Shown here in pieces: positions 3,001 to 9,000 of a DNA stretch of 35,239 nt. The stretch covers positions 1-35,239 of the IMG/VR virus record IMGVR_UViG_2718218139_000010; one strand, 5' to 3'. Position numbers: made by a program. This stretch comes from a virus (lineage: Duplodnaviria > Heunggongvirae > Uroviricota > Caudoviricetes). Position 1 is the first letter of the stretch. Every line of letters begins with the position of its first letter.

Positions 3001-6000
3001 CAGAGTAATTTAATTGTTCAGCAGACTCTTCCCCCGTTCGGTTAGCTGACAACCACATTAAGTCAGCAGTAAGCTCAGCTTTGCTCAGGCAGGCACGGCC
3101 TTGACTGGCATCATATGCAAGGAATTGACATTGCGATTCATTTAATGAATTACATCCATTTAAATATACGGAATTCCTGAGCGTCTCAGGAAAGGAACCA
3201 TCTATATGTTTCAAAGAACTACAATGGCATAAAGATAAATTACTGACATTGTCAGGTATGCTGCAATTTATAACCTCTAATGATGAACATCCAACTATAC
3301 TTAATGAAGATAAGTTGGGGGGTAAACAGTTTATTGATTTAAGCTCTGTACATCCATTCAATACCAGTTCTTTCAGAGAACCTGGAAGCAAGTCTGGTAA
3401 TGTTGTTATTGGCTCACTGATTGATAAAGTCTCTCCATTAGTACTTATAACATTAAGTATTTTTGATGCAACCTCATGACGATTTTCGCTGAATTCTCCC
3501 TCAGCGCACCACTTTTCGAGTGCAACTTTAACATCCTCGTTAGATGGTGAACCTACAGGACTTTCAAAATATATTACTCCAGAATTTACAGAGATATTTG
3601 TCGTGGGCAGCATTTATCGCACTCCTTCAACTTAGTCCACTGAAAATAACACCAATAAAAAATTAAACATTATTTACAACAAAAGACTCTGTTTTGGGAT
3701 CAAAATAACACTCATCTTTTCTCATAATCATTGATTCTGTTATTGGCTCTCTACTTAATGGATGTGGAGAACCAGATATAACTAACTTTAACATTGCATT
3801 TTTATCATATAGGTTACAAACTTTTGCACTTACAGAGTTCTTTATAAAAACACCATTATCTGGAGCATCTAATATTATTGGACACTTGAGATGTTCTTTT
3901 GAAAAAAAAACTCTTCCGAATGTACAGGAAAAGAACTTGAAAGTATTTTATAGCATATACCTAATGGTAAAAAACTCAGATGAGTATCAATTACAGAGGA
4001 AATTTGCCATGAACGAAGCCTTTTGGCTGACTCATTGCTACCATTTAACCCTAACTCTAATAATGTTTTTAACATCCCATCCTTACAACCAGAAACTAAA
4101 AAAACGTCAGGGCGTTGATAATAATGAATACCAACTTTCTGCCCATTTATAGTAATATCTTTCGTTATTAGGTTTTGTCTGGCAGCTTCACGTAATATTT
4201 CAATACTCTGCAAAGCAACATTTGATGAAATGCTGGATGTTATCAATGGCATATGTCATTTACCCCAACAAGACTAAATTTTAGAAAAAACAACTGCCGG
4301 GACAACTTTCGCCCCCTGTAACCCCAAATAAGATGTCAGATTTATCGGCATTAATTTATCTCCCTGTTGAATTAGCTCCTCTATCATCTACTTAACAAAT
4401 ATCCCCCGGACATTGCAACACAAAAACCGGAGCCGGACTCCGGTTTTGTGAAGCTGTCAGGTTACTTCATCCCGCCAATATTTTCCCACGTCCCGTCAGC
4501 ACGCAGGATTTGCAGCGGTCTTACCACGCACTGTATCATCCTCCGTCATGGCACCGAGAAAATCATTCAGCGTACCCGGTTGAGAATCTTCATACACGGT
4601 GATGGTCCCGGCATGTGACGGCGGGAATCCTTCCACCAACAGAATGACGCTGTACTGACCGTACTCAACGTCCATGCTGTAACGCCCGGCTTCATCCGGA
4701 TTTTCTGAGGCCAGCGTGTTCACCACCACAGTGGTACTGTTACGTTTTGCTTTCAGCTGGATTGTGCAGTTCTGTACCGGTTTTCCTGTGCCGTCTTTCA
4801 GTACACCTGAAATCTTTACTGCCATATTCACCCCACAAAAAAGCCCGCCTGAACAGGCGGGCTGTCATAACACGGTGTTACCTGGCTAATCAGAATTTAT
4901 AACCAACACCCACGATGAACCCGTCTGGTCACGCAGCTGGTTGTCGCAGTGCCAGCACAACACCATTGCGCCGGTACCATAACGGTGAATGACAGTTTCG
5001 CTGTGATGATAATCGCCGTGTGGCCACTGGCAGGATTTAATATGGCGCAACAGCCAGTCAGACAATGCACCAGCACCACCAGCAGCACGAATCACCCGTG
5101 CGTTACTGAAAAACGGCAGCAATGTTTTGTCTTCCACCAGCGGCTGGCGAACGGCAGGAACGACCCCGGACGGCAGATTACGCATGCTTTTCGGTTCCGG
5201 CTCCATCAATACCCGGGTATTGTGGAATACTGGCATGGATTCACGGCCCGGCTTAACGATCACCAGCCCGAGTTCCGGTACCAGAACAGGTCGAAGTAAT
5301 ACCCGCACGTTACCTCCAGATGCGTTGCTGGAATGTGCGAGACGGACGCGGTGGGCGTTCAGAGTAAGGAAGCCTGACGGAGATTATCCAGTGACGGTAG
5401 TCGAGACTAAGGGCTTTCTTAACCTCGTATCCGCGCCTGCGGTAACACTGAATTGTCCATTCAGCCTGCTCTTCAGTACATGGAGGGTGTTGGAACCATT
5501 CAGACTTGAATGCGTGAGAATACCGCTCGTGCGTGCAGGCAAGAACGGGCGAATTATCAGAATTGTAATATTTTACGTTGCGTGCCATCGGTTTTCTCCG
5601 GTGGCACGGTGTTACTCAGCGGGAGTTCAGCCCCGCGCAAGATTGTAGATGAGTTTATTCTTCTGCAAAAGCTGAAAAGCCTGCTTTTATTCCGATCTCT
5701 TTCAGTGCCTGTAATGAAGTGACAAACTCACCTTCGCGCAAGATAAATCCGTCTGTCACTCGACCATCCACAAAATTAATTAACGCAGCCCCATTCTTTC
5801 GCAGTAAGCGTAAACTGACCGCCGTATGTAGCCATCAGACGAGAATTGGTAACTTAGACGCCCATCTGACACAGACGGACATCTAAGTATGGAATTACAG
5901 GACTGGCGAAAAGAACCTCGTAAAAAGTATTCGAATGAATTCAAACTTCGTATGGTTGAACTGGCATCACAACCTGGAGCTTGTGTTGCACAGATTGCAC

Positions 6001-9000
6001 GAGAAAATGGCGTCAATGATAATGTTATTTTCAAATGGCTCAGGCTCTGGCAGAACGAAGGGCATGTTTCGCGGCGTCTTCCGGTAACAACCTCTTCTGA
6101 CACTGGCGTTGAATTATTACCTGTAGAAATAACGCCGGATGAGCAGAAAGAACCTGTGGCGGCCATTGCGCCGTCTTTATCCACTTCCACTCAGACCAGA
6201 GTCAGTGCCAGTTCCTGCAAGGTGGAATTCCGTCACGGTAACATGACGCTGGAAAATCCATCGCCAGAGCTGCTCACGATGTTAATCCGCGAACTGAGCG
6301 GGAGGGGAAGATGATTTCACTCCCATCAGGTACCCGTATCTGGCTCGTTGCCGGCGTTACCGATATGTGTAAATCCTTCAACGGACTGGGAGAACAGGTA
6401 CAACATGTGCTGAATGATAATCCCTTCTCCGGTCACCTGTTTATCTTCCGTGGCCGACGGGGTGACACCGTCAAAATTCTTTGGGCTGATGCTGATGGTC
6501 TGTGCCTGTTCACCAAACGCCTGGAGGAAGGCCAGTTTATCTGGCCTGCGGTACGTGACGGCAAGGTATCCATTACCCGCTCGCAACTGGCAATGCTCCT
6601 CGATAAGCTGGACTGGCGTCAGCCAAAAACATCCAGCCGTAACTCACTGACAATGTTGTAAAAAACTCCTGACCGCATTATAAAAACGGTCATGAGTCAG
6701 AAATACCTCATTCGCATCGCAGAGCTGGAAAGATTGCTCTCTGAGCAGGCTGAAGCCCTCCGTCAGAAAGACCAGCAACTGAGTCTGGTTGAAGAGACGG
6801 AAGCCTTCCTGCGCTCTGCACTGACACGTGCCGAAGAAAAGATCGAAGAAGATGAACGGGAAATAGAACATCTGCGGGCTCAGATAGAAAAACTGCGCCG
6901 GATGCTGTTCGGTACCCGTTCTGAAAAACTGCGTCGTGAAGTTGAACTGGCTGAGGCTCTGCTGAAACAACGTGAACAGGACAGCGATCGTTACAGTGGG
7001 CGGGAAGACGATCCTCAGGTTCCCCGCCAGTTGCGACAGTCGCGCCATCGTCGTCCGTTACCGGCACACCTTCCCCGAGAAATACACCGCCTGGAGCCAG
7101 AAGAAAGCTGTTGCCCGGAGTGTGGCGGTGAGCTGGATTATCTGGGGGAAGTCAGCGCTGAACAGCTGGAACTGGTGAGCAGTGCCCTGAAAGTGATCCG
7201 CACAGAACGGGTAAAAAAAGCCTGTACAAAATGTGACTGTATTGTTGAAGCACCGGCGCCGTCCCGCCCGATAGAGCGTGGTATCGCGGGCCCCGGATTA
7301 CTTGCCCGCGTGTTAACGGGAAAATACTGCGAACATCTGCCACTGTATCGTCAGAGTGAAATCTTTGCCCGCCAGGGTGTCGAACTGAGCCGGGCCTTAC
7401 TCTCCAACTGGGTTGACGCGTGCTGCCAGTTAATGACACCGGTGAATGATGCCCTGTACCGTTATGTAATGAACACCCGCAAGGTTCACACTGATGACAC
7501 ACCGGTAAAGGTACTGGCACCGGGTCAGAAAAAGGCGAAAACAGGGCGTATCTGGACGTATGTCCGGGATGATCGCAATGTGGGTTCGTCATCTCCTCCA
7601 GCGGTCTGGTTCGCGTACTCGCCGAACCGGCAGGGGAAACACCCGGAGCAACACCTCCGTCCCTTCCGGGGTATCCTGCAGGCGGATGCGTTCACAGGTT
7701 ACGACAGGTTGTTCAGTGCAGAACGTGAAGGTGGTGCACTGACAGAAGTTGCGTGCTGGGCCCATGCCCGGCGAAAAATCCACGATGTATACATCAGCAG
7801 CAAAAGTGCGACGGCAGAAGAAGCCCTGAAGCGAATCAGTGAACTGTACGCCATCGAGGATGAAATACGGGGATTACCGGAGTCAGAGCGTCTTGCCGTC
7901 AGGCAGCAGCGAAGCAAAGTGTTACTGACGTCGCTGCATGAATGGATGGTGGAGAAGAATGGTACGCTGTCGAAAAAATCCAGACTGGGCGAAGCGTTCA
8001 GCTATGTACTGAATCAGTGGGATGCCCTCTGTTATTACAGTGATGACGGTCTGGCGGAGGCGGATAATAATGCTGCGGAAAGAGCGCTTCGTGCAGTCTG
8101 TCTCGGAAAGAAAAACTTTATGTTCTTTGGCAGCGATCACGGCGGCGAGCGTGGAGCACTGTTGTACGGGCTGATCGGCACCTGCCGTCTGAACGGTATC
8201 GATCCGGAAGCGTATCTGCGCCATATCCTGAGCGTACTGCCGGAATGGCCTTCCAACCGAGTTGATGAACTCCTGCCATGGAACGTAGTACTCACCAATA
8301 AATAAGCGTCAATACGGTGCTCCGTTGACGCTTACTGATCACCCGTTCATCCTCGCTGAAGGATTTCACCGTCAGCAGGGAACAGGCCCGTTTAAGAGTC
8401 ACATCAGCCTCCTGAAAATAAAAAAACCGCCGCAGCGGTTCATGATGGTTACAGGGTGAACAGGGTTATATGAAAAAAAACGCATATTCTTTCTTTTTTG
8501 GCTCCGGATTCAGGGACATCAGGGATACCGCATTGAAGAGCGCCATCAGCGGGTCAATTTTCCCCCGTCCACTGGCCTGTTTGGTAATAAGGATGGCATT
8601 CCCCCTGGGCTCCACCCGGGCATTACCAACGCACCAGGCCATCAGGGGCTGGCCACCATGCACCAGTATCCCTTCAGCCAGTTTTCGCTCGGTGGTTTTA
8701 ATGGCACCGCCCAGCTTCCAGCCCTGGCTTATCCCCACCACACTCTCATCGGGGATCCCGGCTTCCGTCAGTGAATCCAGAATCTGCCCCACGCCTGACG
8801 GGTCAATACCGATATGGTCCAGTAACTCAGCCTCATGAATACGGCGCACATACTCTGCCACTTCCGCCGTGTCATCCCCGACCCGACGGACAATGGTCAT
8901 ATCCCCACAGGCAACAAAATCCTGAAAACGGGATGCCTCACTTTTTCGTCTGGCCACCGCGGTTTCATGTGCCCAGGCATGCCCCCATCCCAGCCATTCG

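Follow-up and report, generated by a model that had tools for sequence, protein, structure and literature searches.

A single ISEc23 copy without target-site duplication at a joint probably formed by recombination between two lambdoid prophages

We analysed a stretch of viral DNA of 35,239 nucleotides (nt) (Caudoviricetes; IMG/VR record IMGVR_UViG_2718218139_000010, positions 1 to 35,239), referred to here in its full length as the window, which contains a defective lambdoid prophage and, at 5804-8335, a complete copy of the insertion sequence (IS) ISEc23 of the IS66 family. The copy has no target-site duplication, its two flanks are of different origin, a second joint lies at 4923-4925, and structural genes are missing. 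We consider it probable (probability about 0.6) that this ISEc23 is the single copy left by homologous recombination between two copies in two lambdoid prophages, combined with a separate illegitimate deletion. An earlier note on this DNA had suggested either an IS-associated deletion or inter-prophage recombination; this suggestion was supported and the second option is favoured, the left flank being the early region of another prophage.

The element was identified by full-length alignment. Window positions 5804-8335 were 99.4% identical to Escherichia coli ISEc23 copies, with IS positions 1-2532 aligned end to end, and the name rests on copies annotated by RefSeq as 'IS66-like element ISEc23 family'. 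No copy closer than 99.4% was found among 5,426 complete E. coli genomes. Like ISEc23 of E. coli, the window copy is 2532 bp long and has tnpA, tnpB, tnpC and the same terminal repeats; unlike other copies, it lacks the 8-bp duplication, contains a conversion tract of ~500-620 bp over tnpA and carries three private substitutions. Two reference copies, L001 (strain PRO_A-1443-6M-A) and L002, were used for comparison. The features of the element are as follows (aa, amino acids).

5804-8335, plus strand: complete ISEc23 (IS66 family), 2532 bp, no target-site duplication (full-length alignment)
5804-5827, plus strand: left terminal inverted repeat (inverted-repeat pair I1), matching the right repeat at 20 of 24 positions
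8312-8335, plus strand: right terminal inverted repeat (inverted-repeat pair I1)
5889-6314, plus strand: tnpA, 141 aa (Pfam HTH_Tnp_1, E = 6e-13), equal in length to the annotated tnpA in L001 and L002
6311-6661, plus strand: tnpB, 116 aa (Pfam TnpB_IS66, E = 5e-35)
6692-8305, plus strand: tnpC, DDE transposase, 537 aa (Pfam DDE_Tnp_IS66, E = 9e-98; zf-IS66; LZ_Tnp_IS66; DDE_Tnp_IS66_C)
5870-6368 (IS positions 67-565), plus strand: gene-conversion tract covering tnpA (three-way comparison, 125 marker sites)

The three reading frames are intact, and their lengths equal those of the annotated genes in L001 and L002. Three consecutive genes, an IS66-type DDE transposase, inverted repeats starting GTAAGCG and full-length near-identity are the IS66-family features of this element. 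The terminal inverted repeats are imperfect (GTAAGCGT.../...ACGCTTAC). A repeat finder lengthened their arms by 2 nt (CA/TG) into the window flanks; this extension is a coincidence, because the L001 and L002 copies, which have identical termini, are bracketed by perfect 8-bp duplications (tgatggtt and cgtaattc, respectively) directly outside GTAAGCG...CGCTTAC. With the ends fixed by these two copies, the element coordinates and 8-bp flank sequences first reported proved exact. The window contains one pair of ISEc23 ends only, with no further ends or solo repeats. The absence of the 8-bp duplication is a sign of rearranged surroundings, not of a different IS.

The 8-bp flanks of the element are ctttcgca on the left and tgatcacc on the right, which agree at three of eight positions, about the level expected by chance. 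No 8-bp direct repeat appeared after the boundary was shifted by 2 nt, and the absence of matching flanks that had been claimed before holds after boundary refinement against the two reference copies. As an internal control, both IS600 copies of the same window keep their 3-bp duplications (GAC and TTC), indicating that the missing duplication is a peculiarity of the ISEc23 copy. It is textbook knowledge that rearrangement joints can carry an IS lacking its duplication.

A three-sequence comparison was then used to follow each flank in relatives. The left flank continued as the rem gene in L003 (AMSHJX01), and the right flank continued as a capsid gene in L006 (strain C325, the best overall relative). 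Next to the IS, the left match extended over 881 bp at 100% identity, and the right-hand matches reached up to 96.8% identity over 800 bp. The left match (window 4923-5803) is to a Qin-like prophage found in several E. coli, including AMSHJX01, and consists of three features.

5655-5803, minus strand: rem 3' fragment, last 149 nt, cut by the IS; 100% identical to L003 9552-9700 (intact rem, L003 9552-9803)
5310-5588, minus strand: small hypothetical gene of the Qin-like nin region, 92 aa, complete; identical to L003 9207-9485
4923-5308, minus strand: DUF968 (ydfU-like) 5' fragment, first 386 nt, ~128 codons; 100% identical to L003 8820-9205

Compared with the window's own DUF968 region (20656-21338), the DUF968 fragment reached only 86.7% identity. 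Since the 881-bp piece matches another prophage at 100% but that region at 87% only, two prophages are involved, and the piece comes from a prophage other than the one holding the window's own DUF968.

The right flank matched lambdoid prophages of many E. coli across the boundary between genes annotated as terminase large subunit and phage major capsid protein, and its features are given below.

8336-8402, minus strand: codons 1-22 of the prohead-protease/major capsid fusion gene, truncated by the IS; matches L006 12001-12067
8424-8441, minus strand: terminator-like hairpin and T run, 3' of terL (consensus scan, pattern match only)
8466-10127, minus strand: terL pseudogene with an amber codon at codon 335 (9123-9125) (Pfam TerL_ATPase and TerL_nuclease; translation)
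10124-10687, minus strand: terminase small subunit, terS (Pfam Terminase_2; annotated relatives)

In L006, the intact capsid fusion gene spans 10130-12067 (1938 nt), and colinearity with the window starts at L006 12001, 67 nt inside the gene. The TerL of the window was 97.5% identical to that of L006 over 553 aa in a single frame. Its amber codon is a CAG to TAG change relative to the L001 allele, in frame in a gene that is otherwise full length, and on translation terL is a pseudogene despite this length. The earlier description of an intact terminase 3' end with its terminator to the right of the IS therefore stands in part: the terL 3' end and a terminator-like hairpin are present, but the gene carries the amber codon, and the DNA directly beside the IS is capsid codons 1-22 (8336-8402), not the terminator. 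The closest relatives of the right-hand part of the window covered only ~62% of it at ~94% identity.

Searches for the joints and the parental insertions were performed in the same set of 5,426 complete E. coli genomes. None of the three chimera joints was present in this set. The empty site, with both flanks joined, had no contiguous match there, and 120-nt queries over the ISEc23 junctions gave no match covering 80% or more. Exact 37-38-mers of both junctions were also absent from species-representative genomes and metagenome contigs. The combinations of IS plus right flank and of left flank plus IS seemed common to many E. coli; reading of the junctions showed different insertion sites, and these candidates were rejected as parental states. 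In L001, ISEc23 (6116-8647) is a simple insertion between terL and the capsid gene, at the equivalent of window 8443-8450, right after the terL terminator. It resembles the window copy in the IS itself, its orientation, the prophage head module and its position 108 bp from the window junction; unlike the window copy, it has its duplication, tgatggtt, and is bordered on the other side by a capsid, portal and tail module that is intact. ISEc23 was close to terL in 11 of the records listed, of which the junction was read only in L001, and this proximity could be due to a preferred target or to a widespread phage lineage carrying the IS. Another ISEc23 copy type adjoins the DUF968 block (L002, duplication cgtaattc).

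The window shows the signature of a two-IS recombination product, namely one IS, flanks from two loci and no empty site. According to the reading that we favour, one parent copy would have been inserted 22 codons into the prohead-protease/capsid gene of a prophage A, represented by the int ... Q ... lysis ... terS-terL part of the window (8336-35239), and the other into rem, in the early region of a prophage B, which would be Qin-like and carry the nleG-nleL-nleC effector end. We infer a RecA-type crossover between these copies, after which the remaining IS would be bordered on the left by sequence from the rem insertion and on the right by sequence from the capsid insertion; the two 8-bp flanks would differ because one flank was kept from each parent insertion. 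Such a crossover would have cut prophage A off from its head and tail genes, either by deletion or by relocation through inversion, and its reciprocal joints would be the capsid 3' part ...CCCGGTGATCACC followed by GTAAGCGTAAAC, and ...GACGCTTAC followed by CTTTCGCAAAACACATAATG. An independent illegitimate deletion at 4923-4925, at a 3-nt microhomology, would have taken prophage B from mid-DUF968 to the lom end, a segment that would have included the Q, lysis, terminase, head and tail genes belonging to B. The fewest assumptions are needed if the effector end is assigned to prophage B.

The gene order also bears on this reading. In lambdoid prophages, rem-DUF968 lies upstream of Q, lysis and terminase; the window has it on the same strand as terL but downstream of that gene. 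This reversal of the early-to-late order (terL, capsid start, IS, rem end, DUF968) excludes a single deletion within one lambdoid prophage; in addition, the two DUF968 alleles are only 87% identical.

Recombination between two ISEc23 copies is plausible in view of experimental precedent, the common ISEc23 substrates in lambdoid prophages and the exchange history of this copy. In Agrobacterium tumefaciens pAt15955 and pAtAch5, IS66 x IS66 recombination leaves one IS66 with differing 8-bp flanks, each of which matches the outer flank of one parent (PMC6778807). The window and pAt15955 share one IS66-family element at the joint and two unlike 8-bp flanks (PMC6778807). They differ in that both parents were observed and the event was reproduced experimentally in that study (PMC6778807), whereas the parents of the window are deduced and the partners would be two prophages. 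Several points weigh against our interpretation. The rem::ISEc23 and capsid::ISEc23 parents were absent from the 5,426 E. coli genomes and from the species-representative genome and metagenome collections. The conversion tract, with its two breakpoints, shows exchange and not the crossover itself. Two insertions and one crossover are needed, compared with one insertion for a transposase-driven adjacent deletion, and deletion and inversion are indistinguishable from the 35-kb window alone.

The exchange history of the element was characterized with 125 marker sites at which canonical ISEc23 differs from an IS66-family copy, ~95% identical to it, that O55:H7 and O103:H2 strains carry in the efa1/lifA island. 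The window copy has island-type alleles at 14 consecutive marker sites (IS positions 67-565) and canonical ISEc23 alleles at the other 110 (positions 13-38, plus 107 sites between 660 and 2457), and marker site 930 carries a private substitution. The tract is thus bounded by two breakpoints and has a length of 499-621 bp. No other copy among the complete genomes had the same mosaic. As read from these alleles, the mosaic shows that this copy or an ancestor of it has exchanged sequence with another IS by homologous recombination. Use of the IS polymorphism as a marker of the crossover point was considered and rejected: the tract is two-ended, there is no single switch, and the pattern supports IS-IS exchange only indirectly.

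The second joint was resolved by three-sequence comparison, and the features at and beside it are as follows.

4923-4925: illegitimate joint between the lom 3' end and mid-DUF968, microhomology GTC (three-sequence comparison)
4890-4925, minus strand: lom, last 36 nt; matches L004 18112-18147
4462-4825, minus strand: tail-fibre remnant with a 1218-bp internal deletion (L004 16539-17756 missing from the window)

No E. coli match spanned position 4925. To the left of the joint, the order is lom end, tail-fibre remnant, nleG, nleL and nleC. The tail-fibre remnant contains a joint of its own at 4535-4537, with ATC microhomology, where N-terminal and C-terminal tail-fibre genes are fused; this fusion was absent from the closest E. 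coli relatives. The HECT-type E3 ligase effector gene (nleL type, 1241-3613) and nleC (1-987) are both intact. The nleG-family gene (3663-4253) is frameshifted, having lost 1 nt near 3910 in comparison with strain B1_2.

The effector-end stretch was 99.9% identical to the prophage effector end in strain B1_2 and similar strains. The B1_2 effector prophage was examined as a parent and rejected: its head/terminase module is different, of lambda type, and its DUF968 allele is 92% identical, making it a relative and not the parent. An ISEc23 end was likewise rejected as the maker of the 4923-4925 joint, where only the GTC microhomology was found and to which no extra ISEc23 end in the window corresponds. 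The second joint is best read as an independent illegitimate deletion. The structural module had been proposed to be lost at the IS; the IS joint contributes to this loss, but the second, IS-independent joint is also needed.

Among the alternatives, an unlikely one is that a single ISEc23, for example in the capsid gene, was the source of a transposase that attacked a second site on the same chromosome, producing an intramolecular replicative 'adjacent deletion'. The outcome would be identical, with one IS between an old and a new flank and no duplication, one prior insertion would suffice, and the transposase genes are intact. However, the target would still have to be in a second prophage. 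To our knowledge, no adjacent deletion by an IS66-family element has been described, which counts against this alternative; as far as we know, the transposition mechanism of the family is still poorly defined. The documented behaviour is simple insertion with 8-bp duplications only, both for the ISEc23 copies considered here and for IS66 (PMC6778807). If an adjacent deletion had occurred, the window would be evidence, at the sequence level, that IS66-family elements can transpose in a replicative or one-ended mode.

An assembly artefact, in which two real ISEc23 copies were collapsed and their outer flanks misjoined across a 2.5-kb repeat, seems improbable. Assemblies are classically misjoined at repeats of this length, neither ISEc23 junction was present in any other genome searched, and a mosaic IS consensus could in principle stem from mixed reads. 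On the other hand, two 100% identical IS600 copies were resolved in the window with correct duplications and colinear flanks, genuine decay of this region is evident from the non-repeat joints at 4535-4537 and 4923-4925, and the mosaic is one clean 14-site tract instead of scattered mixed calls.

Slightly less probable still is inheritance of a ready-made chimeric joint from a rearranged defective phage or prophage through recombination with an incoming phage. Lambdoid prophages are mosaics, and the limited match of the right-hand part to its closest relatives (~62% coverage, ~94% identity) would be in keeping with such an origin; yet a genome without head and tail genes would be unable to spread as a phage alone, and the joint was missing from every collection searched. 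An ordinary simple insertion with a mutated 8-bp duplication or misjudged boundaries, in favour of which there is nothing beyond the chance 2-nt extension of the inverted repeats, has a negligible probability and is excluded because the flanks belong to two different loci right up to the IS ends, which are fixed by two reference copies, and are adjacent in no genome (no empty site).

If two ISEc23 copies recombined as proposed, IS copies common to similar prophages would have acted as portable homology through which the early half of one prophage was fused to the effector end of another, with loss of the virion genes. The 'prophage' of the window is a chimera of at least two elements. In it, nleL and nleC remain intact while the capsid, portal, tail, terL, lysozyme, xis and nleG genes are lost or broken, and the window would offer a fully mapped example of how effector-carrying prophages become fixed in a pathogenic E. 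coli chromosome. Lambdoid prophages that are chimeric, decayed and equipped with effector genes are well documented in enterohaemorrhagic E. coli (PMC2669165). In strain Sakai, IS insertions, point mutations and the deletion of morphogenesis genes have eroded the lambdoid Sp prophages (PMC2669165). The window resembles them in being a decayed lambdoid prophage with type III effector genes at the tail-fibre end (PMC2669165) and differs in that its three joints occurred in no complete E. coli genome searched. The specific chimera thus appears unique among the searched genomes and ordinary in kind, and the element itself was already known; the event is of a known kind and opens no new biological question. 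For annotation, an IS that lacks its duplication reliably indicates a rearrangement joint.

The gene map of the window was based on Pfam (integrase), on PHROGs (repressor-like, CII-like, O/P-like, Q-like, holin, Rz and HNH) and on colinearity with L006. The order on the minus strand is given in three parts.

Minus strand, first part: int, xis (IS600-interrupted), exonuclease gene, repressor-like gene, cro, cII-like gene, O, P, nin genes
Minus strand, middle: DUF968, rusA, Q, terB, SASA esterase gene, holin, lysozyme (IS600-interrupted), Rz, HNH, terS, terL (amber)
Minus strand, end: capsid codons 1-22, ISEc23, rem end, small open reading frame (ORF), DUF968 start, lom end, tail-fibre remnant, nleG, nleL, nleC

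The window therefore has the integrase, repressor/cro, replication, Q, lysis and terminase genes of a defective lambdoid prophage in lambda order. In the intact relative, capsid, portal, connector and tail genes directly follow terL. PHROGs scans of 20 right-side ORFs gave regulation, replication, lysis and unknown families only, with no head, connector or tail family, and most small ORFs had no NCBIfam match. Between int and nleC, no portal, capsid or tail genes were found beyond the 22 capsid codons, the 36 nt of lom and the tail-fibre remnant. The reported absence of portal, capsid and tail genes after the IS was thus borne out across the window from nleC to int, and structural genes elsewhere in the window, which would have spoken against it, were sought and not found.

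The two IS600 copies are 100% identical to each other and interrupt two of the genes listed above.

13341-14604: IS600 copy 1, 3-bp duplication GAC, inside the prophage lysozyme gene
32815-34078: IS600 copy 2, 3-bp duplication TTC, interrupting an 89-aa ORF at the xis position

When rejoined, the 89-aa ORF matched the Pfam Exc family at threshold (23.2 bits, compared with a cut-off of 23). No chromosomal flank or attachment site was visible within the 35,239-nt window, which starts exactly at the nleC stop codon and breaks off within a lambda-type integrase gene that runs from 34121 to beyond 35239.

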